In this document: positions 1,974 to 55,940 of the stretch, piece by piece
How positions within the stretch are numbered: the stretch's first letter is position 1
Layout: each line of letters begins with the position of its first letter
NCBI GenBank assembly: GCA_040767605.1
Contig: JAXGOI010000001.1
Location: forward strand, 1,720,610 to 1,784,609
From: Clostridiales bacterium
Lineage (GTDB): Bacteria > Bacillota > Dehalobacteriia > UBA4068
Direction: 5' to 3'
DNA: 64,000 nt
Notes under the pieces: generated by a model
The model's input: only the letters and a program-made list of their open reading frames with translations
Databases searched by the model: none
What the model was told of the DNA's origin: nothing
Translations under genes and position numbers: made by a program

Positions 1974-2024
1974 TCTATCCTACTCCTTTCTTTACTCCTT
2001 AATACAGTTTGTATACACTATTAC

Positions 2025-6494: not shown

Positions 6495-6751
6495 ACATTC
6501 ACCCCGTTTTTTATAATTCTTTCTTTATCCTGCCCAGCCCGGCTCTCTTTATGCTTTGGCTTTGGCCTAATAAATTTTTTCGCCCTGCATATAAAAAGCA
6601 TAAAAACCTCTTAAGGGGGGGAGGAACATTTTCTTCCGCCACCCCGTCATTATAATGTGGTTTGTGAGCATTTTAAGGCTAAGTCTTAAGATTTTTCTAG
6701 ACTAATGCTTAAACAAGGGCGGTGCAAGGAGGAGCCATATTCTTTCGTATC

Positions 6752-6779
6752 TTGCTTTGTCTGCCGATTATTGTATAAT
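6752..6779 (+). promoter_or_regulatory. Sigma-A-type promoter (TTGCTT-N16-TGnTATAAT) for the MBOAT/DHHW operon
   Basis: -35 TTGCTT at 6752-6757. Extended -10 TGTATAAT at 6772-6779. Lies ~60 nt upstream of the RBS AGGAGG. Confidence 0.4.
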
Positions 6780-6841
6780 TGAATCATTGTGCATTATAAT
6801 AATTGTCTCTGTATGGGGGAAGGCCGCAGCAGGAGGTTTGT

Positions 6842-8248: not shown

Positions 8249-8257
8249 GGAGCCATT

Positions 8258-9463: not shown

Positions 9464-9492
9464 AGAAGACCAAAAAGCGGATTTTCCAGCTT

Positions 9493-9522
9493 AAAAAAAC
9501 CCGGCAAAAGCCGGGTTTTTTC
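9493..9522 (+). terminator. Rho-independent terminator
   Basis: AAAAAACCCGGC-aaaa-GCCGGGTTTTTT hairpin followed by a T-run. Confidence 0.8.
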
Positions 9523-9620
9523 TGTTTAAAGTTTTTACATATATTCTATGCAAAATGGCAAATACTTAAGGGTGAAAGCTTTACTGAAAGTTTAATAAAA
9601 GTTTAATAAAAGTACTATTA

Positions 9621-9649
9621 TTGACAAATATATTAAATTATGGTTAAAT
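9621..9649 (+). promoter_or_regulatory. Sigma-A-type promoter TTGACA-N17-TTAAAT upstream of the SDR gene
   Basis: Consensus -35 and a near-consensus -10 about 50 nt upstream of the start. Confidence 0.4.
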
Positions 9650-9701
9650 TTAGTAATTAGTAATCTTTTGCATTTAGATATTAATTCAGGAGGCGGATAA
9701 A

Positions 9702-10463
9702 ATGAGGTTTGAAGGAAAAACAGTTCTCGTTACCGGAGCAAGTTCCGGCATGGGCTATTCTATTGCTTTAGATTTTGCCAAAGAAGGCGCTACGGTAATT
9801 GCGGTTGCCAGACGCAAGGAAAGATTAGAAGAATTAGCTGAAGAGGCTAAGGCCATGGCCGGGAGAATCCTTCCTTATAGCGGAGATATCTCTTCTAAGG
9901 AAACAGCGGAAGGCATGATTGATTTTGCCCTTAAAGAATGCGGTAAAATTGATATTTTGGTAAATAATGCCGGCATTATGGATGAATTTAAGCCCATTGA
10001 CGAAGTGACGGACGAGTTTTGGGATAATATTATGGCCGTTAATCTTAATGGGCCCTTTATGGCTATGCGTAAAGCGGTTCAAATTATGTTAAAGCAGGAA
10101 ACCGGCGGTAATATTATTAATATATCTTCTATCGGCGGAGTATGCGGGGCCCGAGCAGGCGCGGCTTATACGGCATCTAAACATGCCATAGTCGGCATTA
10201 CAAAAAATATAGCTTTTATGTATGCCAAGCGGGGTATTCGCTGTAATGCTATTTGCCCGGGGGGTGTTGAAACAGAAGTTATGAATTCCCAGACAGATAT
10301 CAGCAAGTTCGGTTTATCCCGTGTTATGGAGGGTTTAGATGCCTCAATTACCCCGGGGAAATCGGAAGATATTTCAGCCGCGGTGCTTTTTATCGCAAGT
10401 GATGAATCCAAGTTTACAAACGGTGCCGCAATTGTTATAGACGGCGGTGTTTCCTGCAATTAA
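9702..10463 (+). CDS. SDR family oxidoreductase (FabG-like)
   Basis: TGASSGMG cofactor motif, NNAG, and the YTASKHA catalytic YxxxK. Confidence 0.9.
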   Translation: MRFEGKTVLVTGASSGMGYSIALDFAKEGATVIAVARRKERLEELAEEAKAMAGRILPYSGDISSKETAEGMIDFALKECGKIDILVNNAGIMDEFKPIDEVTDEFWDNIMAVNLNGPFMAMRKAVQIMLKQETGGNIINISSIGGVCGARAGAAYTASKHAIVGITKNIAFMYAKRGIRCNAICPGGVETEVMNSQTDISKFGLSRVMEGLDASITPGKSEDISAAVLFIASDESKFTNGAAIVIDGGVSCN

Positions 10464-10519
10464 TTTTTTACTGTATTTAGCCCTAATACGGGGTTAAGCC
10501 TTATTTTTAAGGCTAAAAA

Positions 10520-10566
10520 AGACTGCATTAAGGGGTTTATTCCCAATGCAGTCTTTGTTTTTTTTA
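10520..10566 (+). terminator. Rho-independent terminator
   Basis: AGACTGCATT...AATGCAGTCT stem followed by T8. Confidence 0.75.
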
Positions 10567-10644
10567 AGCAGCCCAAGGGCTTTATTTAAATTTGCTTTTT
10601 GTGCAAGGCCCTGGTTAAACCTGCTCTAGGATATTTAAACTTAT

Positions 10645-11310
10645 TTAATGAATATCTATACCCCCAAAAACGCAGGTGGCATTTATGGTTATAGTGGGCT
10701 CTTCATGGTTTGTTTCCCGGCGGATATTATTATCCACCCCGCCGAATATAGGCAAAGAATTTACTACTATATTAACATTATCCGGCATAAATAAATCTAT
10801 GCCGCCAAATACGGCCAGGGCATTAATTTCTATATTTTCTTTAATCAGGGCTTTTTTACAATCTAATTCAATTCCGCCGAAAATTGCGGTAATATTACTG
10901 CCCTCAAAAACATCCTCCGATAATTTTACCTCCTGCCCCCCAAAAACGGCGGTTAGGGATTTGCCGGAGGCGGAGTTGAAAATATGCTTAGGCTTCCAGA
11001 TATTTTTAAAAATAAGATTTAAGCCGATTAAAACAAGAATAACCGGGAAAATCAGCTTAGCCGAAGCATTTTTAGGTAAAATATCTCGGGCAATTAAAAG
11101 TAAAAAAATACCTATTATAAGCGTGGTAAAAGAGCCAAGCTTATTTTGATTTTTTATAATACCGATAATGCTCGGAACAATAATAAATAAAGTCCACCAG
11201 CCTTTAAAGAAAATCTCAAAATTCCAAAGGTTAAAAGCATTTCCGGCAAAAATTACCCCTAAAGCAATAAGAATAAGCCCCCAAATAAGGTTATTTGATT
11301 TTCCTGTCAT
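10645..11310 (-). CDS. Membrane protein, LiaF/DUF2154-like (cell-envelope stress family)
   Basis: N-terminal TM helices plus C-terminal repeated FGGI(D/E)L / FGGVDN beta-repeats. Family assignment is tentative. Confidence 0.45.
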   Translation of the reverse strand: MTGKSNNLIWGLILIALGVIFAGNAFNLWNFEIFFKGWWTLFIIVPSIIGIIKNQNKLGSFTTLIIGIFLLLIARDILPKNASAKLIFPVILVLIGLNLIFKNIWKPKHIFNSASGKSLTAVFGGQEVKLSEDVFEGSNITAIFGGIELDCKKALIKENIEINALAVFGGIDLFMPDNVNIVVNSLPIFGGVDNNIRRETNHEEPTITINATCVFGGIDIH

Positions 11311-11384
11311 ATTTAGCCCCCCAAAAAACAATTATGGTTTAAGCTTAACACAGAGAATAAATTAAAACAATAATTTATTTACAC

Positions 11385-12167
11385 TTAAGGCATATTGCAG
11401 CAATGGTTAAGGGGCCCATTACCTTTGCCTAGGGCTAACCCCGCCTTTAAGGCGCAGTTAATATATTCTTTACCCTTTAATACCCCAAGCTTTAAATCAA
11501 GCCCCAAGGCAAGGTTAGCCGCAATTGCGGAAGATAAGGTGCAGCCGGTGCCATGAGTATTTTCGGTTTCTATATGCCGCCCCGGGAACCAATGGTATTC
11601 CCCTTTATAATAGAGAAGGTCATCACTGTCTTTTTGGCGGTGGCCGCCTTTAATTAAAATAGCCCCGCCGCAAAAGGAGCTTATTTCCCGGGCGGCCTTT
11701 TGCATATCTTCTCTTGTGCTTATTTTAAGCCCCGTTAAAACCTCAGCCTCAGGGATATTGGGGGTAATCAGGCAGGCCAGAGGAATAAGCATATTTTTAA
11801 GAGCCGTAAGGGAGGCCTCCTCCATAAGGGAGTGGCCGCTTGTGGAGACCATTACAGGGTCTAAAACAATATTTTCGGCCTTATAAAAGGCCAGTTTTTG
11901 GCTGATTATTTTAATTGTTTCCGGCAGATGAACCATGCCTATTTTTACCGCATCGGGGGGAATATCGCTAAAAACGGCATCTAATTGAGCCCCTACCATT
12001 TCAAGGGGAATATCTAAAACAGAATATACTCCGCAGGTATTTTGAGCTGTTAAGGCTGTAATTACACTCATCCCATAAACCTTATGAGCGGCAAATGTTT
12101 TTAAATCCGCCTGGATTCCGGCGCCGCCGCTGCAATCGGAGCCGGCAATTGTTAATGCTGTTTTCAT
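11385..12167 (-). CDS. thiD: Hydroxymethylpyrimidine/phosphomethylpyrimidine kinase ThiD
   Basis: N-terminus LTIAGSDCSGGAGIQADLKTF is the ThiD/PdxK ribokinase-fold signature. Confidence 0.9.
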   Translation of the reverse strand: MKTALTIAGSDCSGGAGIQADLKTFAAHKVYGMSVITALTAQNTCGVYSVLDIPLEMVGAQLDAVFSDIPPDAVKIGMVHLPETIKIISQKLAFYKAENIVLDPVMVSTSGHSLMEEASLTALKNMLIPLACLITPNIPEAEVLTGLKISTREDMQKAAREISSFCGGAILIKGGHRQKDSDDLLYYKGEYHWFPGRHIETENTHGTGCTLSSAIAANLALGLDLKLGVLKGKEYINCALKAGLALGKGNGPLNHCCNMP

Positions 12168-12168
12168 T

Positions 12169-12819
12169 TTATACCCCTTTATTAATTAATTCCTGAAAAC
12201 CGGAAATATAATGATGGCAATTTTCTTTAAGAGATGAACATATTGCCTCCCAAGCCTCATCATAAATGCCGTAAACGATAAACCCCGCCTCTTTGGCGGT
12301 TTTAGCGGCATAGGGAGAATCTTCAAAAACCGCGCATTTTTGCGGGGGAAGGCCCAGATTATGGGCGGCCTGCAAATAAATATCCGGGCTGTTTTTATCT
12401 TTCCCGGCCTCCTGTACCGTTAGTATAACCTTAAAAAAACAATCTATTTCAAGCCTTTTAAGAGCGGCTAAAGCCAGAGGTTTAGGGGTGGCTGTAGCTA
12501 TTGCCATAGGAATATTTTTAGCCTTTAAACAGTCTAAAAATTCCCTGGTATAAGCCTTAAGCTCCACAGAGTTTTCATAGCCCTTCTGAAGCTGCAGCTT
12601 CCATTCCTCCAAAATTTCCTTTAGTGTAAGCTCCGGGGTAAAATTATCTGAAAAATACTGGGCGCTTTGCTCCAGAGTAAAATTTTCCACCCTTTTTACA
12701 AGCCCCTCGGGGATGGGGATTCCCCTTTTAAGGAGGAAATCCCGGCCGATATTCTTATAAATACCCATAGAATCTAAAATTGTGCCGTCCATATCAAAAA
12801 TTGCGCCTTCAAAATCCAT
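12169..12819 (-). CDS. HAD superfamily hydrolase
   Basis: Motif I FDMDGTILDS. Sits inside the thi operon. Confidence 0.75.
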   Translation of the reverse strand: MDFEGAIFDMDGTILDSMGIYKNIGRDFLLKRGIPIPEGLVKRVENFTLEQSAQYFSDNFTPELTLKEILEEWKLQLQKGYENSVELKAYTREFLDCLKAKNIPMAIATATPKPLALAALKRLEIDCFFKVILTVQEAGKDKNSPDIYLQAAHNLGLPPQKCAVFEDSPYAAKTAKEAGFIVYGIYDEAWEAICSSLKENCHHYISGFQELINKGV

Positions 12820-13457
12820 TATTTCACAACCTTTGCTAGAATTTCCGCAAGTTCTCCGGCGGCTTGCTCAATATCAGGGGCGGCAAGTATTGCCGATATT
12901 ACCGCAATTCCGGCAATCCCCGTGCCGGCAAGCTCTTTAAGATTATCTTTATTTATGCCCCCAATTGCCACAACGGGGAGCTTGGTATTTTTACAAATTG
13001 CCTTTAAGGTTTCATGGCTTACCGGGGAGGCATCATCCTTTGAGGAGGTAGGAAAGACAGCCCCCACGCCTAAATAATCCGCTCCGTCTCCGGCGGCAAT
13101 TAAAGCCTCCTCCGGGGTGGAGGCAGAAACCCCTATAATTTTTTTGGGGCCCAGGGCTTCCCGGGCTTTTTTACAGTTTAAATCCCCCTGGCCAATATGG
13201 ATGCCGGCGGCATCCACCGCCTGGGCAACCTCTAAATTATCATTTACGATTAAAGGTACGGAGTATTTATCCGTCAGCTTTTTTATTTCTTTGGCTAAAG
13301 CTATAAATTCATTTTTGGGGAGGGTTTTTTCTCTGATTTGTACCATGGTTACGCCGTTTTTTAAAGCCACCTCAACCTGCTGGGCAAGGGTTTTACCCTT
13401 TAGCCAGCTTCTATCTGTTACAAGGTAAAGCAGGCATTGTTTCTTAGAGCAATTCAA
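12819..13457 (-). CDS. thiE: Thiamine-phosphate synthase ThiE
   Basis: LYLVTDR start and the GADYLGVGAVFPT region typical of ThiE. Confidence 0.9.
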   Translation of the reverse strand: MNCSKKQCLLYLVTDRSWLKGKTLAQQVEVALKNGVTMVQIREKTLPKNEFIALAKEIKKLTDKYSVPLIVNDNLEVAQAVDAAGIHIGQGDLNCKKAREALGPKKIIGVSASTPEEALIAAGDGADYLGVGAVFPTSSKDDASPVSHETLKAICKNTKLPVVAIGGINKDNLKELAGTGIAGIAVISAILAAPDIEQAAGELAEILAKVVK

Positions 13458-14256
13458 TTTTCATACCTCTTTCTAAAATATTTGCATTCATATTGCTTAC
13501 GGCATCTATAAGCTTTATACGAAGGCTGCCTGTGCCAAGCCGGTTTTTTTCTACTTCTGCCTGGGCCGATTCACCGGCTAAACCCATAATTGTTACGGCT
13601 GTGGCGGCGGCCTCTAAAAAATTGCCTGTTATGCCGCAAAAGCACCCCACAAGGCAGGAGCACATACAGCCTGTGCCGGTTATTTTACTCATAAGGGGGT
13701 GGCCGTTTTTTATGCCGTAGGCCGTATTGCCGTCGCTTATAATATCCGTTTCCCCGGTAATGGCAATTACAGATTTTGTGGTTTTGGCAAAATCTTTGGC
13801 TAATTTGGCGGCGGCTTTAATATTTAAAGCGTCCCCCAGGCCGGCATCTACCCCCCGGGTTTTGCCAAAGCCTGAGGCGGCCACTTTAATTTCAGATATA
13901 TTCCCCCGAATAACCGCAAAATTTACTTCCTCAAGCAGGCGGTTTGTGGTTTTAGTGCGTAGGGGGGAGGCCCCATTACCCACAGGGTCTAAAATTACCG
14001 GCTTATTTAAGCTATTCGCTTTTTTGCCGGCTAAAACCATAGCCTCAATGGTTTTTTGATTAAGAGTACCTATATTCAGCACAAGGCTGTCGCAAATGGA
14101 GATTATATCTTCAACCTCATCAATATCATCCGCCATAATAGGGGAGCCCCCGATAGCTAAAATAATATTTGCGCAATCGTTTACGGTTACATAATTGGTA
14201 ATATTGTGTACTAAAGGGTGTTTATCTTTTAATTCTGTAATCAGCGCGGGGTTCAT
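13444..14256 (-). CDS. thiM: Hydroxyethylthiazole kinase ThiM
   Basis: HNITNYVTVNDCAN...AIGGSPIMADD signature. Confidence 0.9.
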   Translation of the reverse strand: MNPALITELKDKHPLVHNITNYVTVNDCANIILAIGGSPIMADDIDEVEDIISICDSLVLNIGTLNQKTIEAMVLAGKKANSLNKPVILDPVGNGASPLRTKTTNRLLEEVNFAVIRGNISEIKVAASGFGKTRGVDAGLGDALNIKAAAKLAKDFAKTTKSVIAITGETDIISDGNTAYGIKNGHPLMSKITGTGCMCSCLVGCFCGITGNFLEAAATAVTIMGLAGESAQAEVEKNRLGTGSLRIKLIDAVSNMNANILERGMKIELL

Positions 14257-14351
14257 TAAATATCCTCCTGTTTTTTTAAAATTTGCCTTAATTTATTTAA
14301 ACAGCCCGAATTTAAAATCTATGCCCTAGGGCGGGTATGCCTGTATTTTGG

Positions 14352-14480
14352 CGTTAAAAAAACCACATTCTGTGAATGCAGCCTAAAAGTATCTTCCCTA
14401 CGTTGGCATTATCCACATCAGGTTTTAAGGGTCAAAGCTTTTTAGCTTACTCTCAGTCCTAAAAAAGAACTCCCCATTTT
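14352..14480 (-). promoter_or_regulatory. TPP (THI-box) riboswitch with terminator-type expression platform, in the 5' leader of thiM-thiE-thiD
   Basis: Minus-strand RNA reads GGGGAG...GGACUGAGAG...ACCCUUAAAACCUGAUGUGGAUAAUGCCAACGUAGGGAAG, the classic CUGAGA / ACCUGAUCUGGAUAAUGCCAGCGUAGGGAA core. A CCACAUUC...GAAUGUGG hairpin plus U7 follows (plus coords 14355-14377). Confidence 0.85.
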
Positions 14481-14675
14481 GATTCACTTATATATTCAGT
14501 ATATAGTATGAGGTAGGCAATAGTCAATATTGGCGTTTATATTTGCAAAAAGGCAGGCAATTATTATTTTATTTAATAGCCGGTTTAAAAGCCGATGAAT
14601 ATTTGTCCAAAACAATATTTTTGGAGGTTTTAAGCTAAAATTAGCGAAACACTTCATATTCAGGGGGGTGGGAAT

Positions 14676-16049
14676 ATGGAATATAATTCAGGGTTAAAAG
14701 GCAAAATTCCTCAAACAGGGGATGAAATATGCCTGGAAATTAGCGGCCTTAATCATCAGGGTATGGGTATTGGCCGCTTTCACGGCCCGGCAATTTTTAT
14801 TAAGGGAGCCTTGCCCCGGGAGATTGTAAAAGCAAAAATTATTAAAACCCATAAAAAATATGCCATTGGGAAGCTTTTGGAGATAATTAAAGAGAGCCCT
14901 GATAGAATCAGCCCGCCCTGTCCGTATTTTGGCGCCTGCGGAGGCTGCAGCCTGCAGCATATTTTATATAAGGAACAATTAAAATTTAAAAAGCAAAGGC
15001 TAAAAGACAGCCTCGAAAGAATTGGAGGTATAAAAAACCCCAATATTGAGGATGTTATGGCATCCCCCAAAGAGTTTTATTATCGCAATCGGGGGCGCTT
15101 TCATATCTTTTGGGAAGAAAATGGGCTTAAGCTGGGGTATTTTGAGTATAATGCCCAAAATATAATAAATATAAAAAAATGCCTTATTGTTGATGAAGAG
15201 ATTAATAAAATTCTTTTCTATCTTCAAAAACATTTGCCAGAATATAGAAAGGGCCTTGGGGGTTTATATCAGATTGCAATCCAAAGTAATAGCCGGGGCG
15301 AGATTGGCCTGATTTTTATGACAAAAGAAGATAACCCGGCTTACCGGGAATTAGCCCTGGCTTTATTAAAAAACTTCCCTAAAATTATTTATATTGCGGC
15401 AAATATCAGAAAAGCTAAAGCCCCTGCAAGAAGCATTACCTCCGGAGGGGAATGGAGGCATTTGGCAGGAGATAAAGCCCTTAATGAAAGCTATAACGGC
15501 CTGAGCTTTGCCCTTAGCCCAGGCTCCTTCAGCCAGGTGAACAGGGGGCAAACCTTAAATTTATATGCCAAAATTAAAGAATATGCCGCTTTAGGGGGAG
15601 AGGAAACGGTTTTGGATATATACTGCGGAGTCGGCGCCATTGCCTTATATCTCGCACCGTTTTGCAGGCGAGTAATGGGGGTTGAGGAATCAAAAACGGC
15701 AATAATAAACGCAAAAAGCAATGCTTTGGCAAACGGAATAGAAAACGCGGAGTTTTTTGCCGCCCCCGCTGAAGAAATTTTGCCCCTATGGGCTGAACAG
15801 GGCCTTAAACCCCAGGTAATTGTGGTTGACCCCCCCAGGCAGGGCTGTAATGAGGCTGTAATTTCTGCAATTGCAGCCATGGAGCCGGGGAAAATTATTT
15901 ATGTATCCTGCGACCCGGCAACCCTGGCAAGAGATTTGCGTATTTTAAACACAGCGGGCTATAAAATTAAAAAAACCCTGCCTTTTGATATGTTTCCCCA
16001 GACGGGGCATGTGGAGACGGTAGTATTGATGTCAAGGGCGGATAAGTAA
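14676..16049 (+). CDS. rlmD: 23S rRNA (uracil-C5)-methyltransferase RlmD/RumA
   Basis: N-terminal TRAM domain, the 4-Cys cluster CPYFGACGGCSLQH, SAM motif VLDIYCGVGAIAL, and VVDPPRQG. Confidence 0.9.
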   Translation: MEYNSGLKGKIPQTGDEICLEISGLNHQGMGIGRFHGPAIFIKGALPREIVKAKIIKTHKKYAIGKLLEIIKESPDRISPPCPYFGACGGCSLQHILYKEQLKFKKQRLKDSLERIGGIKNPNIEDVMASPKEFYYRNRGRFHIFWEENGLKLGYFEYNAQNIINIKKCLIVDEEINKILFYLQKHLPEYRKGLGGLYQIAIQSNSRGEIGLIFMTKEDNPAYRELALALLKNFPKIIYIAANIRKAKAPARSITSGGEWRHLAGDKALNESYNGLSFALSPGSFSQVNRGQTLNLYAKIKEYAALGGEETVLDIYCGVGAIALYLAPFCRRVMGVEESKTAIINAKSNALANGIENAEFFAAPAEEILPLWAEQGLKPQVIVVDPPRQGCNEAVISAIAAMEPGKIIYVSCDPATLARDLRILNTAGYKIKKTLPFDMFPQTGHVETVVLMSRADK

Positions 16050-16077
16050 GGATGTAATAAGATAAGCAAATAAAGGC

Positions 16078-16148
16078 TTTCCGTGATTTGAGATCTGGTT
16101 TCAATCCGGCAGGATGATCACGGAAATTTGTTTTGCGGGAACTTGCCC
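16078..16148 (+). terminator. Terminator-like hairpin after rlmD (long loop)
   Basis: TTTCCGTGAT...ATCACGGAAA 10-bp inverted repeat followed by TTTGTTTTG. The loop of ~38 nt is unusually long. Confidence 0.4.
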
Positions 16149-16646
16149 AAGATAGGCAGGTTAGATGATCAAGAAGGTGATATGGATATTGACGTGGTGA
16201 GTTGATAGGATTACTGGCAAAAACGTGGTGAGTTGACAAAATAGTTATTACTTTTATTAATCCTATTCAGGATGCCAGATTCAATTTATATTTCCTTAGA
16301 GAATACACTTGAAATCTTCTGACTGCTGACAAAATAATAGATGTATGAGCCCTTGAAGATGGCGTATTTTAGTGTTGTGAGGGGGTTCTTTGTTTAATGA
16401 TGGCGGGTAAAGTTGTAGATTATGAGTGTGTTTTAAGGGAATATGGTTTAGTTGATGAATTGAGCTTAACCATGCAAATGAAGTTTTGCTTTAAGGGTTC
16501 AACTGTTTAGCAAAATAAAAAATTAAGGTTGGAAGATTAGGTATCAGTACCTAACTATTCATGCTAAAAACAACTAATACCTATTAAAATCAAATAGCAT
16601 ATGTTATTATGTTAGTAGACTATAATTCATTATGGAGGTGTTCAAT

Positions 16647-16829
16647 ATGTCTGATCCCAAAATTGAAAGATGGTATTCATTAGAAGAAACTGCTGACTAT
16701 CTTGGGGTGAGTAAAGATACAATTTACAGATGGATTTCAGACAAGAAAATGCCAGCAACAAAAATTGGACGTCAATGGAAATTTAAACTGACTGAAGTTG
16801 ATGAGTGGATTAAACAAAGAAATCTATAA
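16647..16829 (+). CDS. Excisionase/AlpA-family HTH DNA-binding protein
   Basis: YSLEETADYLGVSKDTIYRWISDKKMPATKIGRQWKF is the Xis/AlpA-type (MerR-like) HTH. GGAGGTG RBS. 60 aa. Confidence 0.75.
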   Translation: MSDPKIERWYSLEETADYLGVSKDTIYRWISDKKMPATKIGRQWKFKLTEVDEWIKQRNL

Positions 16830-16859
16830 TATTAAGATTAGAATATTGGAGGAGATACT

Positions 16860-18974
16860 ATGAATAGTATAAAGTACAAAGATCTCATAACTGAATTATT
16901 ATTACAAGATGAGCGACTATGGAATGAAGGGAAAACTGAGTTTAATCAAGTACTTCTTTTTGATTTACTAGATAAAGTTGATGAAAAAATTATTGATTTA
17001 CTTTTACAAAACGAAGAAATTAGAAATAAGTTTTTCATTAAAATCAAAGATGTATATGTTTTTAAATCTAATGATTTCAAATTTTTTATGGAAGAAAATA
17101 AAATTAACAACTCATATACGGCATTTGAAAATATCATAGGCTTATCTGATGGTGATAGATTCATAAAGAATAGAGATGAAGTTGTTATTAATTTTCCTTT
17201 TAAAGATTGTGTTTTGGAAGGTGGACAATCAACAGAGGAAGGCGAAGATCAATACTATGAGTATACAGAAGAAAAAACTAAAACAGTAAATGGAGAAAAG
17301 GTGGTTGAGCCTGCAGGATTTAAAAGAAAAAATTCGAAAAGATCTGAGATATTTTTTAATGAAGTATTAGCTAATGATGAGCTTGACAGACTTAGAGATG
17401 AGAAAGCATTCGTAAACTGGAAAAGATACACAAGAAATTCCGAGGAAACAATAGGTCAAATTAAGAGAAATTCGGAAGGACTTATTAATGAAAATATTAT
17501 TATAAAGGGTAATAACTTATTAGCATTATATAGCTTAGAGAGTCAGTTTTCGAATTCAATAAAAATGGTATATATTGATCCACCTTATTATTTTTCAAGT
17601 ACGTCTAAGAGTAATGACTCATTTGTTTATAACACAAATTTTAAGCTTTCTACTTGGCTAGTGTTTATGAAGAACCGATTGGAGATTGCTTATAGATTAC
17701 TGCGAAATGATGGAGTTATTTTCGTAAGTATAGATGACGGGGGGCAAGCGTATCTTAAGGTATTAATGGATGAGATATTTGGAAAAGAAAACTTTATTTC
17801 AACACTACCAACAATTATGAATTTAAAAGGGAATAATGATGAATTTGGATTTTCTGGAACTCATGAATATACTCTTGTGTATGCTAAAAATAAGAGTAGT
17901 GCGTTAATTAATGAATTTCCTCTCGATGAAGAAGAACTTTTGAAGGAGTGGGAGGAAGATGAAATAGGTTATTACAAACGAGGGGCAACTCTCAAAAGAA
18001 CAGGAACCGATGCGCCAAGGGAAAAGCGACCATATGCATACTACCCAATACTAGTTAAAAATGGTGAAATAAATTCTATTGAAAAAGAAGAATTCGAGAG
18101 AATATTTAACAAAAACACAAAAACTTTTGATGACGATTTTGTGAGTGAGTTAAAAATAAAATATGAAAGCTTAGGATTTGAGTTCATACTCCCAACAATC
18201 TCAGATAATAAAACATCTTGGAGATGGCAATATTCTAAGGTGAAAAATGAGAGTAATGAAATTATTATTTCATTTTCTGGGGAGACTTCGTTTTATAAAA
18301 AACAGAGACCTCAATTAGGTGAAATTCCAACTAAAAAGCCTAAATCTATTTTTTATAAACCAGAATATAGTAGTGGCAATGGTACTAGACAAATTAAGGA
18401 TTATTTTGGCGAAAAAGTGTTTAACAATCCTAAACCTTTAGAACTCATCAGAGATTTTATTTTGCTAGCTACTAATGAGAATGACATCATATTAGATTTT
18501 CATGCTGGATCAGGAACAACCGGAGATGCTACAGTAAGACTTGGTGAAAACAGGAAGTTTATCCTGATTGAACAAATGGATTACGTAAAAGATGTTACGG
18601 TAGAGAGAGTTAGAAAAGCACTAGAATCAGAAAACAGTGACGATTCATTCATATATTTCGAACTTGCAGAGTTTAATGAAAAAGCTAAAAGAGAAATACT
18701 GCAATGCAAAAACCTACAAGAATTAGAGAAACTATTTGAGGAACTATATGAACACTATTTTTTAAACTACAACGTTAAAGTAGAAGAGTTTAAAAATAAT
18801 GTAATGAAAGATAAGAGATTCATTGAGTTATCTCTTGAAGAACAGCAAAATATGTTTCTTGCAATGTTAGATTTAAATCAGATGTATGTAAATAAGTCAG
18901 AGATGGAAGATAAAAGATATGGTATAAATGATGAAGAACAAGAATTGATAAAACGTTTTTATGAGGGGGTGTAA
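16860..18974 (+). CDS. mod: Type III restriction-modification system methyltransferase (Mod)
   Basis: 704 aa. Catalytic VYIDPPYYF (DPPY) before the C-terminal FxGxG motif LDFHAGSGTTG, the beta-class order typical of Type III Mod. Very AT-rich gene. Confidence 0.85.
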   Translation: MNSIKYKDLITELLLQDERLWNEGKTEFNQVLLFDLLDKVDEKIIDLLLQNEEIRNKFFIKIKDVYVFKSNDFKFFMEENKINNSYTAFENIIGLSDGDRFIKNRDEVVINFPFKDCVLEGGQSTEEGEDQYYEYTEEKTKTVNGEKVVEPAGFKRKNSKRSEIFFNEVLANDELDRLRDEKAFVNWKRYTRNSEETIGQIKRNSEGLINENIIIKGNNLLALYSLESQFSNSIKMVYIDPPYYFSSTSKSNDSFVYNTNFKLSTWLVFMKNRLEIAYRLLRNDGVIFVSIDDGGQAYLKVLMDEIFGKENFISTLPTIMNLKGNNDEFGFSGTHEYTLVYAKNKSSALINEFPLDEEELLKEWEEDEIGYYKRGATLKRTGTDAPREKRPYAYYPILVKNGEINSIEKEEFERIFNKNTKTFDDDFVSELKIKYESLGFEFILPTISDNKTSWRWQYSKVKNESNEIIISFSGETSFYKKQRPQLGEIPTKKPKSIFYKPEYSSGNGTRQIKDYFGEKVFNNPKPLELIRDFILLATNENDIILDFHAGSGTTGDATVRLGENRKFILIEQMDYVKDVTVERVRKALESENSDDSFIYFELAEFNEKAKREILQCKNLQELEKLFEELYEHYFLNYNVKVEEFKNNVMKDKRFIELSLEEQQNMFLAMLDLNQMYVNKSEMEDKRYGINDEEQELIKRFYEGV

Positions 18975-18977
18975 TGA

Positions 18978-21722
18978 GTGTCCGAGAAAAAGAATTTATA
19001 CGAAATTATTGGTTCAAAAGCGTGGGAACTTAAACTACAATTCCCTGAAATCCCTAAATATGTAACAGACAACTTGAAATATTCATTTTATGAATGGCAA
19101 AAGAAAGCTTTTGAGAATTTCTTAACCTATCAAGAAATCAAGAAAATTGAATCTCCAAATGATCCAACTCATCTAATGTTTAATATGGCTACTGGAACCG
19201 GAAAAACATTGCTTATGGCTGCAACAATTTTGTATTATTATAAGCAGGGCTACAATCATTTTCTATTTTTTGTGAATCAAAATAATATTGTTGATAAGAC
19301 AGAAAACAACTTTATTAATGTGAACCATAATAAATACTTATTTAATAAAAGAATTGTAATTGACGACAGCGATGTAATAATAAAAAAAGTAGAAACATTT
19401 AGTGAGGGAACAAAAGATATTGAAATTAAGTTCACTACAGTACAAAAACTATATAATGATATTCACACAGAAAAAGAAAACCAGGTATTATTGGATGATT
19501 TGATAAAAATGGATATAGTGATGCTTGCCGATGAAGCACATCACCTTAACACAAATACGCAAAAGCAAGAGACACAATTAGAACTTGATTTAGCGACAGA
19601 GTTAACTAGCAGAACTAGTGACGTTGAAGTAGAGCGCAAAGGGTGGGAGCACACGGTTATAGAGTTAATTTTAAGAAAGAAAAGTAAGAAAATTCAAAAT
19701 AAGAATGTATTGTTGGAATTCACTGCAACAATACCTGATAATCTTCAGGTGTCAGAAAAGTATAGCAATAAAATAATTCATAAATTTGGCTTGAAGGAGT
19801 TTTTAAGTGCTGGATATACAAAAGAAATTAATTTGATATCTTCTACCTTCAATAAGAAAGAGAGAATACTTCAAGCTCTATTATTTAGCTGGTATCGTGA
19901 AAAAATCGCTTTAAAATACTATAGCTTAGGTAATGATAGCCTTGCTAATTTTAAACCGGTTATTCTATTTAGGAGTAAATCAATAGATGATTCTAGATCG
20001 GATTTCGAAGAGTTTCAAGATATAATAAATAAACTAAATCCCAATGATTTTGAGTTTTTGAAGGATATTGATAGCAAGGTCAATGAAAATGGTACTGTTT
20101 ACGAACAAGGGAAATCTAGAACAAGGGATGTTATCGAGTTTATTAAGAAGGAAAATATTTCATTTTCGCAAATCGTTGAGAATTTGAAATATAAGTTTGC
20201 GCAGAAAAATTGTATAATCACTAACTCGAAAGATAATACCACAAAAACAGAAAAAACTGATGATCATCAAGATAGATTACTTAATAGTTTAGAAGATAAG
20301 AATAATCACATTAGAGCTATTTTCACAGTAGAGAGACTTACAGAAGGTTGGGATGTATTAAATCTGTTTGATATAGTAAGACTCTATCAAGGGCAGAATA
20401 CAGGAGGTAGTACTAAAAAAACTCCAGAAGTAACAACTAAAGAAAAACAGCTTATCGGAAGAGGGGTTAGGTATTATCCTTTTAATTATGGTAATAAGCA
20501 AAATAACTGTCGGAAATTTGATGAGGACATGAAAAATGAATTAAGAGTATTGGAAGAATTGTACTACTATACTTACGACGAAGAATCCAGATATATTTCC
20601 CACCTTAAAGAAGAGTTGAGAAAAGATGGATATATCAAGGACAATAAAATAATCAAAACCTTTAAGATAAAAAAAGAGTTCCAAGATAAAGATTTCTATA
20701 AAGACGTAAAAATATGGCACAACAACCAAATTGATAATCCTGATAGAAAGAAAAAAACGCTCACCGATATATCAAAGGACTTCTATAAAGGATACAGAAT
20801 TAGAAGTATAAGTTTTAATGAAGAGCAGTTTGGGTTTGAAGATAAAGAGGACATTAACAGACTAAAAGTAACTGATAATAATTATCAAACATTAAATACT
20901 AAATTCAAAGAATTCGAAAAACATATAATCCAAAAAGCAATAAATATTAAAGCGAAGCCAAGTTCTTCACTATTTCATTTTTATAGAATGAAAAAAGAGT
21001 TGGAGATTGATAGTATTGATGATCTAATGAGCGATAATTTTCTAGGGGATTTCGATATTCCTATCATTGTAAATGGTGAAGTTAAGTTTCGAGATCTCTC
21101 AAATAAAGATAAACTTGATGTTTTACTAAGTTTCCTGGATGCTTTTTTGATTGAATTTAAGAAAGTGATTGACCCTAAAAAAGGAACAGAATTTATTGCA
21201 TCTAGTTTCAGCGAATTATTTGGTGAGCCTAAAGTTAAGAGTATTGAAAAAGATGAAGACTCTATACGTATAGAGAAGAATTTAAAAAATGAAGATTGGT
21301 ATGTTTTAGATTCTTTTCATGGCACTGACCAAGAGAAAGAATTACTTGAAGAAATTAAGAGTACTATAGCTAATCTACAGTCTAAATATGATGAAGTGTA
21401 TCTTTTAAGAAATGAAGAAGTGTATAAAATATATGACTTCGATAAAGGCAGAGGGTTCCAGCCTGATTTCTTATTGTTTTTGAAATCAAAAGATACTATT
21501 AATAAATATTATCAAATATTTATTGAGCCTAAAGGCGAATATTTGTTAGAACGTGATGGTTGGAAAAATGACTTCTTAAAAGAGATAACCTCGAAATATG
21601 GGAATGAAGGTAAAGATATACTAACTTTGGATAGTAAAAGTTATAAACTAATAGGTTTGCCATTGTTCAACACAAATGAAAATGAATTTAAAGAAGAATA
21701 TAAAAAGATTTGGAACGGTTAA
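18978..21722 (+). CDS. res: Type III restriction enzyme Res subunit (SF2 helicase plus PD-(D/E)xK endonuclease)
   Basis: 914 aa. Walker A MATGTGKTL and the DEAHH box. C-terminal GFQPDF...IFIEPKGEYL nuclease motif. Directly downstream of mod. Confidence 0.85.
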   Translation: MSEKKNLYEIIGSKAWELKLQFPEIPKYVTDNLKYSFYEWQKKAFENFLTYQEIKKIESPNDPTHLMFNMATGTGKTLLMAATILYYYKQGYNHFLFFVNQNNIVDKTENNFINVNHNKYLFNKRIVIDDSDVIIKKVETFSEGTKDIEIKFTTVQKLYNDIHTEKENQVLLDDLIKMDIVMLADEAHHLNTNTQKQETQLELDLATELTSRTSDVEVERKGWEHTVIELILRKKSKKIQNKNVLLEFTATIPDNLQVSEKYSNKIIHKFGLKEFLSAGYTKEINLISSTFNKKERILQALLFSWYREKIALKYYSLGNDSLANFKPVILFRSKSIDDSRSDFEEFQDIINKLNPNDFEFLKDIDSKVNENGTVYEQGKSRTRDVIEFIKKENISFSQIVENLKYKFAQKNCIITNSKDNTTKTEKTDDHQDRLLNSLEDKNNHIRAIFTVERLTEGWDVLNLFDIVRLYQGQNTGGSTKKTPEVTTKEKQLIGRGVRYYPFNYGNKQNNCRKFDEDMKNELRVLEELYYYTYDEESRYISHLKEELRKDGYIKDNKIIKTFKIKKEFQDKDFYKDVKIWHNNQIDNPDRKKKTLTDISKDFYKGYRIRSISFNEEQFGFEDKEDINRLKVTDNNYQTLNTKFKEFEKHIIQKAINIKAKPSSSLFHFYRMKKELEIDSIDDLMSDNFLGDFDIPIIVNGEVKFRDLSNKDKLDVLLSFLDAFLIEFKKVIDPKKGTEFIASSFSELFGEPKVKSIEKDEDSIRIEKNLKNEDWYVLDSFHGTDQEKELLEEIKSTIANLQSKYDEVYLLRNEEVYKIYDFDKGRGFQPDFLLFLKSKDTINKYYQIFIEPKGEYLLERDGWKNDFLKEITSKYGNEGKDILTLDSKSYKLIGLPLFNTNENEFKEEYKKIWNG

Positions 21723-21899
21723 AATTGAATTGATCATTGATGGAAAAAATGAGCTGTGAAATTGATAAAGCGTAGATAATAATCTTTTTTGTACATGAGA
21801 TGGTTGAATATAAATTATGAATGGGATTTTAATCATCTCATGACATTTAATTTACTCAGTTAAAAGTTATGCTGGGGACCGAAAGAGGCGAGGTAGAGT

Positions 21900-22394
21900 A
21901 TGTACACTATTAAAGGAAAGCAAGCTTCAAGGATTGAACCGGTCACTTTTTCAGAGTTAAATATGACTGAAAATGATATAAAAGAGATTCTAAGAAACAG
22001 CATTGATATGATCTGTGATGAAGAAGAATCCATGCTTATTGTTGGCAGGTAGGTCAGAAATAAATGGATAAGTCACTCATTACAACAGCATCTGGAGAAA
22101 AGAAAATTAAACGGAGGTCTCTACCGAAAATAGATTTAATGCTTGAAGGGTGTTGTTAAAGAAGGAGACATTATAGTTGCTAAAGGGATAGGAGATGAAG
22201 GAATGCTTCTTTCTAATGGCAGTGCAATGGTCAACGGAGAAGAAAAGTCTATGCAAGCATGGCTAAAAGAGATTTATGGATGGTTTAGCGTTCAGACTTA
22301 TGTTTTTGCTGTACATAAAGAAACAGGTAAAACTTTGTCTCAGATTCGTGAAGAATATATGGAAAAGAAAGTTACTGAAAGCACTGAATTATAA
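21900..22394 (+). pseudogene. Disrupted ~165-codon ORF of unknown function (three in-frame stop codons)
   Basis: One continuous reading frame opens with RBS GAGGCGAGG and ATG at 21900 (MYTIKGKQASRIEPVTFSELNMTENDIKEIL...). It is interrupted by TAG at 22050, TAG at 22134 and TAA at 22140, then continues in the same frame as the TTG-start 83-aa ORF 22143-22394. Confidence 0.4.
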
Positions 22395-22467
22395 AAAATA
22401 AGCAGTTGAGCTAATAGACTGAGTTTAATTATTTGTGGTCATTTCAAGAAATGGGGGGAGATTTCTT

Positions 22468-24354
22468 ATGTCAGGTAATCGTTCATTTACTGAATATGTA
22501 AAAAACTCATTTGATAATCAATTTTGGTCTGTTGCAGAAGAATATCTGTGTGAGAATGTCGATCCCTTGAATATCAAGCTTTTTAAAGTACATAAAGCTG
22601 GAGAGCCAGAAATTACAGATGTGCAAGTGGAACATGTTTGGGTTGAAGATTTACCAGAAAAGAAAATACAATTTGATGTGGCCTTATCCGTAATATTTGA
22701 AATCCCAGAAGCTGATTATCATTATGATGATTCAGAAGAAAAGAGAATATGGCTAATGGTTCGTTGTCGAGGAGATCTTAGTTGTAATCTCCAGGATTTC
22801 GAGATTTTTGAAGTTTCCGATTACACTGGGAAAAACCGTGTTAAAAATCCATTGGACGATTCGCTTGTTCCCTATATTCCATATGAAAAGCTAGATGAAG
22901 TGGCTACATCGTTTCTTAAAGAATATTACCCTGAAGCTCTTAAAATTACTCAATATAAGCAGGACCCTGTTTGGGTTGACCCCAATATCCTTACAGAAAG
23001 ACTTGGATTAACAATAAATACTCAACGCATAAGGGAAGATGCATCAGTATTCGGTCAGATATACTTTGTTGATACTGATGTAGAAATGTATGATTCCAAC
23101 ACTCAAAGTAATGTAGCTATGCAGATTGAAGGGAAAACTATTGTTGTCGATCCCTATATGTACTTACTTAGGAATCTAGGTTCTGTTAATAATACAATAA
23201 TACATGAGTGTGTACATTGGGTTAAGCATAGAAAAGTATTTGAACTGGAAAAACTATATAATGCAGCAGCCTCTCATATAAGCTGTGAAGTAAAAGGTGG
23301 GGCAATCTCAACGCTATCTAAGAAATCTACAGAATGGATGGAAAAGCAAGCTAACCAATTGACACCACGGATACAAATGCCAGCAGAACCTTTTAGAGTA
23401 AAGGCAAATCAATATATAGCACAATTTATGCGTGAATCGAATGCTAGGCACACGGTAGATGTGATGGAAAAAGTTATTACTGCATTGGAGACTAAATTTG
23501 CGGTATCTAAGCAAGCAGCAAAGATTCGACTTGTAGAGTTAGGCTTTGAGGAAGCTATTGGCACATTCACATATCTTGATGGTCGTTATGTAAAACCACA
23601 CGGTTTTCGTAAAGGGACAATCAAGGTAAATCAGACATTTTCTTTAAGTGCTCAGGACGCAGCTATTGAACGCTTTCTCAATCCTGAACTTCGTGCTCTA
23701 ACTGAAAATGGAGATTATCTCTTTGTAGATAACCATTATGTATACAATGCACCACTTTATGTAGAGCGTGATGAAAACGGAAAGTTAGAATTAACTGGAT
23801 ATGCCCGTTCTCATATGGACGAGTGTTGTCTTGTATTTGATATGAGAATCACTAGCAAGGTAGAGAACATATATCACACAGCATGCTTTTTAAATCGTGA
23901 ACTGAGTGACATCACATTTGAAATTAAGTATCATAATGGGTTTGAAAATGCACCGCAAGAACGTCAAGTCGCTATGCGAAAAAAAATTCAAGCTGAAGAA
24001 TTAGAGATTCGAAAACAGATGACTGACGATCCGGAACAGTGCCTGGAACTTCTTCTTAAATGGAGAGGTATGAATTATACTGACCTTGGTCTTGAAATTG
24101 ACCGTGATCCAAAGACTATTAGTCGTACGGTTAAGGGTAAAACTGCCCCTACAGTGGAGACCGCAGCACTTATATGCTTTGGTCTTCATCTCTCGCCTAC
24201 GATCAGTATGAAGTTGATGGACGTGTTTGGCTGCAAGCTGAACCCTATGAAATATCCTAATCATCAATGGATAAATGAGGCTTTATACATAAAATATCCA
24301 GAGCCAATATGGGCTATCCGGGAGTATTTAAGCCCATACGGAGTAGAAATTTAA
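22468..24354 (+). CDS. Large uncharacterised protein with an ImmA/IrrE-type (M78) HExxH metallopeptidase signature and a C-terminal HTH
   Basis: 628 aa from ATG 22468 after the RBS GGGGGGAG. Internal motif RNLGSVNNTIIHECVHWVKH resembles the ImmA/IrrE r.nFTiaHElgH signature. The C-terminal region LLKWRGMNYTDLGLEIDRDPKTISRTVKGKTAPTVETAALICFGLHL is HTH-like. The ~190-aa N-terminal domain and the middle domain are not recognised. Confidence 0.55.
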   Translation: MSGNRSFTEYVKNSFDNQFWSVAEEYLCENVDPLNIKLFKVHKAGEPEITDVQVEHVWVEDLPEKKIQFDVALSVIFEIPEADYHYDDSEEKRIWLMVRCRGDLSCNLQDFEIFEVSDYTGKNRVKNPLDDSLVPYIPYEKLDEVATSFLKEYYPEALKITQYKQDPVWVDPNILTERLGLTINTQRIREDASVFGQIYFVDTDVEMYDSNTQSNVAMQIEGKTIVVDPYMYLLRNLGSVNNTIIHECVHWVKHRKVFELEKLYNAAASHISCEVKGGAISTLSKKSTEWMEKQANQLTPRIQMPAEPFRVKANQYIAQFMRESNARHTVDVMEKVITALETKFAVSKQAAKIRLVELGFEEAIGTFTYLDGRYVKPHGFRKGTIKVNQTFSLSAQDAAIERFLNPELRALTENGDYLFVDNHYVYNAPLYVERDENGKLELTGYARSHMDECCLVFDMRITSKVENIYHTACFLNRELSDITFEIKYHNGFENAPQERQVAMRKKIQAEELEIRKQMTDDPEQCLELLLKWRGMNYTDLGLEIDRDPKTISRTVKGKTAPTVETAALICFGLHLSPTISMKLMDVFGCKLNPMKYPNHQWINEALYIKYPEPIWAIREYLSPYGVEI

Positions 24355-24371
24355 TTTTTTTCTTAAAAAAA

Positions 24372-24388
24372 TGGACAAGGTATGTCCA
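24372..24388. promoter_or_regulatory. Operator-like palindrome TGGACA-N5-TGTCCA
   Basis: Perfect 6-bp inverted arms. A second, related copy lies at 24611-24625. Confidence 0.35.
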
Positions 24389-24533
24389 CTATAAAGTTGA
24401 AAAAGTGACCTTCGACACAAAGATTTGGTCTCTTTTTTATTGGTAAGCATGATAAGCAATTGTCACCAACATTATATTAGTCAGTAAACTATGACTAATT
24501 AAAGAAACAACCGCAAATCAATTCATAAATAAT

Positions 24534-24592
24534 CGCCGGAGTTATCAAAGTAAGCCATTAAAGGCTGAAATAGATAACTCCGGCTTTTTTTA
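24534..24592 (+). terminator. Rho-independent terminator (long-loop)
   Basis: GCCGGAGTTATC...GATAACTCCGGC 12-bp inverted repeat followed by T7. Confidence 0.6.
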
Positions 24593-24610
24593 TTTTCATG
24601 GGTTTTGACA

Positions 24611-24625
24611 GGACATGGCATGTCC
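24611..24625. promoter_or_regulatory. Operator-like palindrome GGACAT-ggc-ATGTCC
   Basis: Perfect inverted repeat. Same GGACA-N5-TGTCC architecture as the site at 24372. Confidence 0.35.
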
Positions 24626-24814
24626 ATTTTCAAAAAAAAATCCGTGTTACATTTAGTTTATAGATAAGCAATATTGCTTTCTAAATAAATCTCAAAGTCC
24701 TAGTGCGCATACGGACGGCGGGATGCATAAGAGTTCAGAACACAGTGATAAAGACTGTGTTTGGAATGAAGATGCACCCACCGTTATTTCGTGTGCCCTT
24801 TTTTAGGACAAGCG

Positions 24815-24849
24815 GAGTCTGTGGTCATCTTCACCGCAGGCTCTTTTTG
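24815..24849 (+). terminator. Terminator/attenuator-like hairpin just upstream of the first phage regulatory gene
   Basis: GAGUCUGUGG-ucaucuuca-CCGCAGGCUC: a 10-bp stem with two G-U pairs, followed by U5. Confidence 0.5.
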
Positions 24850-24888
24850 TATTCCGCCGCCCAATGACTAGGCGGAAAGGAATACTTT

Positions 24889-25437
24889 ATGAAGATTCGA
24901 GTTTTATATGAAGACAACATCAAAAATGGTCACAAGAACTACACCACAATTGAAATTCCAGATGGAGATTACAGTGTTATGCTGGACATTGACTATGAGC
25001 AACGTCTTGCAGAGGCAAAGCCTGAAAAGAAAGCAGAAGTTAAGCGTTGTGAGACTTTGCAGGAAATGTTCGACCTTATGAATGCCAAAGAATACAACCA
25101 CTGGCGCCGCTATCATAGGCATCTTGGCAATCCGAAGACTCCATATCGTAAAGATGATCAGGCTGAAGATGAAACAGATGTTATGGATACATTTGCAGAT
25201 AACTCTCAAGAAATAGAGCGCTCTAACCAATACGAGTACGAGGATGTTTGTAAATGGATACGCAAGGTACTCGGTAAAAAAGAAGATTGGGCGGATATGT
25301 TTATCGCAGTTCGTATGGAAGGTATGTCGATTCGAGAATATGCCAGTTCCATAGGTGTTAATGAAAACAATATTACTCAGAAATTAAAGCGAGCAACCAA
25401 GAAATTAGAACAAGAATATAAAAACCATCAGATTTGA
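24889..25437 (+). CDS. Phage protein with C-terminal sigma-70 region-4-like HTH
   Basis: 182 aa. C-terminus MSIREYASSIGVNENNITQKLKRATKKL is HTH-like. RBS AAAGGAA. Confidence 0.5.
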   Translation: MKIRVLYEDNIKNGHKNYTTIEIPDGDYSVMLDIDYEQRLAEAKPEKKAEVKRCETLQEMFDLMNAKEYNHWRRYHRHLGNPKTPYRKDDQAEDETDVMDTFADNSQEIERSNQYEYEDVCKWIRKVLGKKEDWADMFIAVRMEGMSIREYASSIGVNENNITQKLKRATKKLEQEYKNHQI

Positions 25438-25501
25438 CCTTCTCTCAAGGCTACCAGTTAGGAGGTCAAGTCCTCCAAAAAATTATAAGGAGGTAATTCT
25501 G

Positions 25502-55925: not shown

Positions 55926-55940
55926 ATGGAGGAAAATCAC

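Follow-up and report, generated by a model that had tools for sequence, protein, structure and literature searches.

The 64,000-nucleotide stretch of a Clostridiales bacterium genome analysed here (assembly GCA_040767605.1, contig JAXGOI010000001.1, positions 1,720,610 to 1,784,609 of the forward strand; hereafter the window) contains a temperate phage integrated in the host gene rlmD. Near its left end, this prophage appears to possess a slot in which defence genes are exchanged. In the window, the slot holds an intact Type III restriction-modification (R-M) cassette of the order HTH_17-mod-res, a dead PDC-S11-like gene, and a gene for a 628-aa protein. From sequence comparison, we put the probability of this reading at about 85%. 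The cassette is composed of the following features:

16632–16829, plus strand: small HTH_17/excisionase-domain DNA-binding protein, the first cassette gene (PF12728, 3.5e-20; TIGR01764, 73 bits)
16860–18974, plus strand: Type III methyltransferase Mod, 704 aa (PADLOC MTase_III, 1.7e-185, aa 8–701; PF12564, 2e-14; PF01555, 6.4e-36)
17596–18285, plus strand: Mod target-recognition domain, replaced in comparison with locus L063 (from DNA identity between the window and L063)
18978–21722, plus strand: Type III restriction subunit Res, 914 aa, GTG start (PADLOC REase_III, 7.4e-103, aa 21–908; PF04851, 1.5e-26; HI_1054_N and HI_1054)

Both large genes have the sequence features of a Type III system. 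In Mod, the DPPY motif (aa 240) precedes DFHAGSGTTG, and the relatives of the protein in the Protein Data Bank (PDB) are Mbo45V, an H. pylori Mod and the Mod of EcoP15I. Res contains the helicase motifs GTGKT (aa 73) and DEAH(H) (aa 185), and a nuclease motif PDx22EPK (aa 829–852). The two genes lie on the same strand with mod directly upstream of res, which starts 3 nt past the mod stop (mod stop 18974, res start 18978). The domains and motif order of Mod, the helicase and nuclease motifs of Res, and this gene order are all those of a Type III system. The initial annotation, which had recognised mod from a DPPY motif ahead of FxGxG and res from its Walker A, DEAHH and PD-ExK motifs, is confirmed on both genes.

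The nearest relatives of the cassette are found in two JGI metagenome contigs (L063 and L064), where a Res that is 97% identical occupies the same position in the layout left arm, HTH, Mod, Res, an intact 343-aa gene, the 628-aa gene and a sigma-like gene. The window and L063 are ~100% identical in DNA sequence over 16600–17590 and 18285–20780, and 25–82% identical over the intervening 17596–18285. The Mod protein is 704 aa long in the window and 683 aa long in L063. The Mod target-recognition domain has thus been swapped by recombination relative to L063. The HTH-mod-res unit is also present in a non-phage locus resembling a defence island (L065), with an HTH protein that is 75% identical, a Res that is 69% identical, and a cassette GC content of 29%. 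Remoter Res homologues (60–65% identical) occur across many phyla and are not accompanied by the HTH gene.

The cassette lies within a prophage whose position is defined by the following features:

14676–16049, plus strand: host rlmD (rumA), encoding a 23S rRNA uracil-5 methyltransferase, the integration target (Pfam tRNA_U5-meth_tr and TRAM)
16008–16247, no strand: conserved left arm of the prophage, with the attL junction as its left edge (column conservation, blastn)
16248–24682, no strand: variable accessory (defence) slot of 8.4 kb, bounded by the left arm and the leader, both of which are conserved in the family
24683–24888, plus strand: structured, non-coding leader RNA (206 nt) of the phage early operon, closing the slot on the right (conservation and folding)
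24889–25437, plus strand: first conserved core gene, a sigma-70 region 4- or Q-like protein (Sigma70_r4_2, 2.9e-5; phrog_11138, 5e-34; in 57 species)
63380–64000, plus strand: large serine integrase, N-terminal part (97% identity to the Javan630 integrase over aa 1–207)

The host/phage junction is located at about 16008, within the 3′-end of rlmD. In a 24-sequence alignment of related loci, column conservation rises from ~0.5 to ~0.95 exactly at 16008, and decays past 16247. The left arm between these positions (240 bp) begins 42 bp before the rlmD stop codon, so that the last ~42 bp of rlmD are provided by the prophage. It is 72–91% identical in ~25 loci by blastn and holds two copies of GTGGTGAGTTGA. 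In ~20 related loci, rlmD is likewise found no more than 10 kb upstream of the first core gene. Because the left arm and the 206-nt leader flank the AT-rich block, and both are family-conserved, the block is inside the prophage. Downstream of the slot, the prophage is of the siphovirus type. It starts with the sigma-region-4-like gene, Rha and a VapE primase, and continues with packaging, head and tail genes, followed by a holin and a GH25 lysin. The last part comprises a tet ribosomal-protection gene with a TcpC fragment, and then DUF2800, a single-stranded DNA (ssDNA)-binding protein and PolA. Since the integrase at 63380 runs off the end of the window, the right prophage end and attR lie outside it. 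The phage core is 91.9% identical in DNA sequence to Streptococcus phage Javan630 over 66% of a 24.1-kb query (24900–49000), and 81% identical to Erysipelothrix phage phi1605. On the features present in the window, the prophage is assigned to the rum-integrating Phi-m46.1/Phi1207.3 group, also known as Ca. Heliusviridae (PMC4260502; PMC5053989; bioRxiv 10.1101/2021.03.30.437683). A tRNA-linked island was ruled out, as ARAGORN detects no tRNA.

To place the slot in the context of its family, 57 loci from as many species were retrieved with the first core gene as query; 26 of these other loci have both landmarks, giving 27 with the window. The slot is 6.3–9.6 kb long in the 26 other loci. Simple gene calls in the 27 loci gave 183 proteins in ~90 clusters, arranged as shuffled cassettes. 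PADLOC and Pfam scans of representative slot proteins identified one or more R-M, defence or defence-candidate genes in every one of the 27 loci. The related slots contain LlaJI-type R-M systems (two m5C methylases, an McrB-like ATPase and the LlaJI nuclease), Lamassu LmuB/LmuA (in Javan630, among others), and an ABC-3C-like module adjoining a different Type III R-M. Their other cargo includes R-M systems of Types I, II and IIG, Dam/Type IIS systems, a further Type III R-M, PDC-S06 and PDC-S11. The prophages hosting the slot belong to many Bacillota genera. A LlaJI-type R-M, SpyI, has been documented in the left arm of Phi1207.3 (PMC4260502).

The Mod and Res proteins of the window are singletons, with no counterpart in any of the 57 related loci; in relatives, the slot is taken up by other defence systems. 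Likewise, no phage among 50,697 INPHARED records carries the cassette, and a megablast search with the island matched only its last 200 bp, which correspond to the leader. Queries for exact copies of the 639-aa, 628-aa and sigma-like proteins gave no match, and only Mod located the contig, in Logan run SRR27558879. The slot thus occupies a fixed position between conserved borders, and its content is variable and dominated by known defence systems. This agrees with the initial annotation, which had suggested variable defence cargo within the prophage near its att site and a comparison with relatives integrated at rlmD: the flanks are conserved on both sides, and the content between them differs among relatives. 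Two relatives, from Oscillibacter (L061) and Pseudobacteroides (L062), have slots that carry R-M cargo with no rlmD visible in the retrieved upstream neighbourhood, which suggests that the hotspot is tied to the phage rather than to the chromosomal site. R-M systems carried by prophages are already established, as are defence hotspots of prophages (PMC9122126), and this slot is a further case. A published description of this particular hotspot was not found in the literature searched.

The cassette also differs from its surroundings in base composition. In a 1-kb profile, GC content is 29–31% in six consecutive bins (17–22 kb) and 33.5% in the 16–17 kb bin, while almost all of the remaining DNA in the window is 40–48% GC. 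A 300-nt profile places the drop between ~16.25 and ~21.9 kb. The GC content of 16248–21892 is 30.0%, and that of HTH-mod-res (16632–21722) is 29.9%, compared with 42.6% for the host DNA (1–16007) and 42.5% for the phage core (24889–55122). Relative to 455 equal-sized windows outside the slot (42.1 ± 1.6%, minimum 36.6%), the GC content of HTH-mod-res has a z-score of -7.8. By tetranucleotide L1 distance, it lies 0.50 from the phage core, while core windows lie at most 0.156 from the core. The GC content of third codon positions (GC3) is 0.23–0.27 in mod and res, versus 0.35–0.42 in core and host genes. Lys, Asn, Ile, Phe and Tyr together make up 38–40% of the residues in Mod and Res, versus 25–27% in VapE and the capsid protein.

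These profiles bear out a block of ~30% GC that is distinct from its surroundings and encodes proteins rich in Lys, Asn and Ile, as had been proposed, but they revise its extent and context. The very AT-rich part is real but stops at ~21.9 kb rather than 22.4 kb, and is 5.6 kb long instead of 8.2 kb. The phage core, which had been estimated at ~45% GC, measures ~42.5%. The single island that had been drawn from 16632 to 24860 resolves into three modules of separate history: the HTH_17-mod-res part is indeed very AT-rich, but AT-richness is only mild in the 628-aa gene and in what remains of the PDC-S11-like gene, the region 21893–24354 being intermediate at 36.8% GC.

Acquisition of the cassette from a lower-GC donor, as first proposed, is no more than plausible, as AT-richness relative to the core is common to all cargo of the slot, of any content. 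The slot is 33–37% GC, and the core 40–43% GC, in all 26 related loci. Low GC could therefore be typical of defence genes that move among many hosts in general and not a pointer to a specific low-GC donor, an explanation to which we give somewhat less than even odds. It is favoured further by the wide spread of Res homologues of 60–65% identity over Bacillota, Bacteroidota, Thermotogota, Campylobacterota, the candidate phyla radiation (CPR) and archaeal metagenome-assembled genomes (MAGs), and by a GC content of 29–30% for the HTH-mod-res cassette in every context seen. On the other hand, the constant GC content of the cassette also lends plausibility to the donor idea, the low GC3 and the strong tetranucleotide distance fit a long stay in a host of ~30% GC, and the flanks of the non-phage copy in L065 are themselves 29–33% GC. 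Because all cargo in the slot is AT-rich, the donor idea and the general AT-richness of circulating defence genes explain the data about equally well. A different origin would make the AT-rich block an independent small integrative element that site-specific accretion placed in tandem with the prophage, on its rlmD side. This has precedents, as tandems at rum/rlmD are documented (PMC13651849; PMC5053989). The deposited 90-kb ‘phage’ record of phi1605 (L002, MF172979; region 1696–16208) is apparently such a tandem, with a 14-kb element between rumA and the true left arm (15974–16208) that encodes a helicase, its own Type III R-M and its own serine recombinases. In the window, however, the conserved left arm (16008–16247) separates rlmD from the block, no recombinase is encoded within the block, and a search found no second att or left-arm copy. 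Tandem integration, which the initial annotation had left as an alternative, is hardly credible here and can be set aside.

The small HTH_17 gene had been described as Xis/AlpA-like. Its likely true start is at 16647, which gives a protein of 60 aa (65 aa as listed). The TIGR01764 ‘excisionase family’ domain and the phrog_66 label, ‘excisionase and transcriptional regulator’, would fit a prophage excisionase, but the AlpA Pfam score is under the cut-off. The match to MAD1 (71 bits) is also under its cut-off of 80. The protein is identical in L063, and accompanies mod-res at 75% identity in the non-phage cassette of L065. Among the 27 slots, the gene is present in four, each time as the first gene of a methyltransferase-led cassette, and -35/-10-like promoter elements were seen upstream of such HTH genes in several loci. 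The integrase of the prophage is a serine recombinase located 47 kb away; serine recombinases are not known to use Xis-type factors. An excisionase is therefore very unlikely, and because of its distribution and the distant serine integrase, the HTH protein is probably a regulator of the cassette.

Type III enzymes such as EcoP15I hemimethylate an asymmetric site, and their ATP-dependent cleavage needs two inversely oriented unmodified sites. By analogy, the prophage cassette would protect its lysogen as follows. A phage of the Phi-m46.1/Phi1207.3/Javan630/Ca. Heliusviridae type has integrated into the 3′-end of rlmD by means of its large serine recombinase, and the cargo slot between the left arm and the early-operon leader trades defence genes through recombination. 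The cassette would be transcribed from its own promoter in the lysogen, with the small HTH protein most likely controlling its expression. Mod would hemimethylate an asymmetric site set by its target-recognition domain, and Mod2Res, using ATP, would cut incoming DNA with unmethylated, inversely oriented sites. The lysogen, and hence the prophage, would be shielded from other phages and mobile DNA, and phage progeny would exit the cell modified. The specificity of the system was probably altered recently via the replaced Mod target-recognition domain.

Several observations weigh against this reading. Res has no sequence match among solved PDB structures, so that its nuclease assignment rests on the motif, and a promoter scan of the window was not enriched over shuffles. 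Decay to a pseudogene has already befallen one neighbour in the slot, the PDC-S11-like gene, so other genes might conceivably have lost function as well. R-M systems can also act as addiction modules. The cassette could accordingly be kept mainly as a selfish addiction module or epigenetic regulator, or Res could be inactive, in which case anti-phage restriction would not be its role. We consider this unlikely, as Res is full length with intact helicase and nuclease motifs, is 97% identical to its relative over 914 aa, and has near-100% DNA identity over its first 1.8 kb. Simple-sequence repeats indicating phase variation are absent from mod, as determined with TRF. Because non-R-M defence systems such as Lamassu occupy the slot in relatives, defence appears to be the selected function of the slot, and we retain anti-phage restriction as the probable role of the cassette.

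The remainder of the slot, downstream of res, contains three further features:

21900–22394, plus strand: pseudogene of a PDC-S11-like PD-(D/E)xK nuclease, with fragments at 21900–22052 and 22143–22394 (comparison with intact relatives)
22468–24354, plus strand: 628-aa protein, comprising an alpha/beta domain at the N-terminus, an ImmA/IrrE-like zincin, and an XRE-type HTH at the C-terminus (phrog_4031, 3e-233)
24534–24592, plus strand: intrinsic terminator of the 628-aa gene module (12-bp stem and U7, -28.7 kcal/mol)

The decayed open reading frame (ORF) noted in the initial annotation is identified as the PDC-S11-like nuclease pseudogene, which has lost 492 bp internally at ~22063 and runs into a premature stop at 22050–22052. 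The gene is intact (327–343 aa) in L007, L013, L048 and L063. An intact relative matches PADLOC PDC-S11 at 6.8e-39; the window copy lacks an intact ORF of ~330–370 aa. Both the remnant and the 628-aa gene are common to other family members at 82–95% DNA identity.

The 628-aa ORF, previously listed as an unknown protein, is upheld and now placed in phrog_4031, and has more than 1600 homologues of ~627 aa. Its HECVH (HExxH) motif at aa 246 is invariant in 45 homologues. The match to Peptidase_M78 (PF06114; 0.002, 18.4 bits) is below the gathering cut-off of 22, and capP matches at 6.7e-7. PF06114 is precomputed as a match on many of the homologues, some of which are annotated as ImmA/IrrE and HTH_3. 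An AlphaFold2 (AF2) model with a pLDDT of 74 consists of an N-terminal alpha/beta domain, the zincin, a poorly modelled middle (aa 367–496) and the C-terminal XRE-type HTH. The structural neighbours found with Foldseek are weak (an M. tuberculosis PrpR-type regulator, C.Esp1396I, HigA and DdrO); there is no full-length structural analogue in PDB or BFVD, and no PDB sequence match to the family profile. Like ImmA/IrrE-ImmR and CapP-CapH, the protein combines a putative M78-type HExxH zincin with an XRE-type HTH beside mobile-element or defence genes. Unlike them, it has these domains fused in one chain, together with an extra N-terminal domain of 230 aa and the poorly modelled middle. Our best guess is that it may be a fused protease-repressor-type sensor or regulator.

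Close homologues of the 628-aa protein (65–95% identity) are encoded directly upstream of the leader in L005, L013, L041, L043, L046 and L063, and remoter ones (about 26–31%) in L015, L023, L028 and L044. In L061 and L062, the gene follows R-M cassettes by 21–44 bp. The 628-aa gene is regarded as semi-conserved accessory content outside the AT-rich acquisition. It accompanies R-M cargo in 9/9 loci, but an association between the two was discounted because R-M is present in about three quarters of the slots in any case. A different gene, encoding a 407-aa protein on the minus strand (phrog_30403; L004:8361–9584 and five other loci), recurs at the right edge of the slot beside LlaJI-type R-M cassettes, and has no Pfam or PADLOC match.

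Two terminators had been predicted ahead of the first phage gene, at 24534 and 24815. The former is indeed an intrinsic terminator (24534–24592), common to loci carrying the 628-aa gene, but the latter belongs to the conserved structured leader RNA. This leader is 76–99% identical in 50 loci and is more conserved than its flanking genes. Its minimum free energy (MFE) is -90.5 kcal/mol (z = -7.5), and its consensus fold comprises a multi-helix domain, a terminator stem with a U-run (24814–24850) and a helix that sequesters the ribosome-binding site. Compensatory changes occur in 10 of 45 base pairs among close relatives. With Negativicutes added, they occur in 22/45 pairs of what is a model-fitted alignment, versus 10.0 ± 1.6 in shuffles, and slid controls gave 10 or fewer. 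With a covariance model, the leader is detected ahead of the sigma/Q-like gene in distant members of the family as well, including the Negativicutes relatives. The leader has no match in Rfam and is a candidate for a new cis-regulatory RNA that acts on the early operon of the phage.

A second element of this region is the motif TCAGATT-N14-GGCTAC, found on the plus strand at 25428–25454, 58762–58788 and 63056–63082 (three copies versus 0.06 expected by chance). The first site overlaps the end of the sigma/Q-like gene, the second precedes the DUF2800 replication module, and the third follows PolA. The motif is present at the same three positions in Javan630, and at the first position in 45/69 loci. 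It might serve the sigma/Q-like protein as a promoter or a qut-like site, and together with the leader it suggests an uncharacterised early-gene switch. This side finding is more novel than the R-M island itself. More broadly, the attL-proximal slot of this very widespread family of Bacillota and gut phages might be a general, previously undescribed defence hotspot whose recurrent unannotated genes, such as those for the 628-aa ImmA-like/HTH protein (phrog_4031) and the 407-aa phrog_30403 protein, are new defence, counter-defence or regulating genes, and which is bordered by a new class of leader RNA gating the early operon. We offer this broader proposal tentatively, and regard it as less likely than not.

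Several other features of the prophage and its surroundings were observed. The apparent host range of the phage core (window 24889–64000; loci L004–L060) is unusually broad. The core is 92% identical in DNA sequence to a Streptococcus uberis prophage. Genomes of Enterococcus, Heyndrickxia, Anaerotignum and Allofustis, and assemblies of Christensenellaceae and Erysipelotrichaceae, encode a VapE primase ~95–97% identical to that of the core. A small number of matches in unlikely MAGs (Methanolobus, Thermotogaceae and Dissulfurispiraceae) may be binning errors. The DUF2800/ssDNA-binding/PolA replication module (58900–63047) is located after the lysis genes in the window phage and Javan630, and directly follows the sigma-like gene in the Oscillibacter (L061) and Pseudobacteroides (L062) relatives, a module permutation within the family. 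Resistance cargo of 35% GC is found after the lysin gene (55229–58556), and consists of the TcpC fragment, a remnant of a conjugative transposon, a gene for a 644-aa ribosomal-protection Tet protein (55926–57860), and a minus-strand HTH gene. This cargo also includes the tet leader RNA sRNA_0030 (RF02864, 195 bits) at 55721–55885. In the host DNA, a TPP riboswitch (RF00059, 61.5 bits) is found on the minus strand at 14378–14486, upstream of a thiamine salvage operon that adjoins rlmD.

In comparison with known systems, the cassette resembles Type III R-M systems with an EcoP15I/HI_1054-type Res and an Mbo45V-type Mod. It shares with them a mod-res operon with a 3-nt gap, a Mod with the Type III N-terminal domain and the beta-class motif order, a Res with SF2 helicase motifs and a C-terminal PD-ExK motif, and a target-recognition domain that varies between alleles that are otherwise identical. 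It differs in its preceding HTH_17 gene, which remoter relatives lack, in the absence of phase-variable repeats, and in being prophage cargo. The slot is similar to the defence hotspots of P2 and P4 prophages (Rousset et al., 2022; PMC9122126) in its fixed place between conserved phage genes and in a content that differs among close relatives and consists mainly of anti-phage systems. Unlike the P2/P4 hotspots, it belongs to a siphovirus-like phage of Bacillota with a serine integrase, and directly adjoins attL. The phage as a whole is like Phi-m46.1, Phi1207.3, PhiSsUD.1, Javan630 and phi1605 in its integration in the 3′-end of rum/rlmD, its serine recombinase and its core genes. It also shares with this group the resistance-gene cargo after the lysis genes, and R-M in the left arm, as in Phi1207.3. 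Unlike the phage records of the group, the window member carries a Type III system that is found in no INPHARED phage record.

The prophage exemplifies a broad-host-range temperate phage, with relatives in dozens of Bacillota genera, that carries interchangeable immune systems along with antibiotic-resistance genes. Its R-M cassette would reshape the methylome of the host and restrict the uptake of competing phages and plasmids, and the swap of the target-recognition domain provides a clean natural example of specificity change. The conserved borders of the slot are a simple handle with which to mine new defence genes in gut Bacillota.

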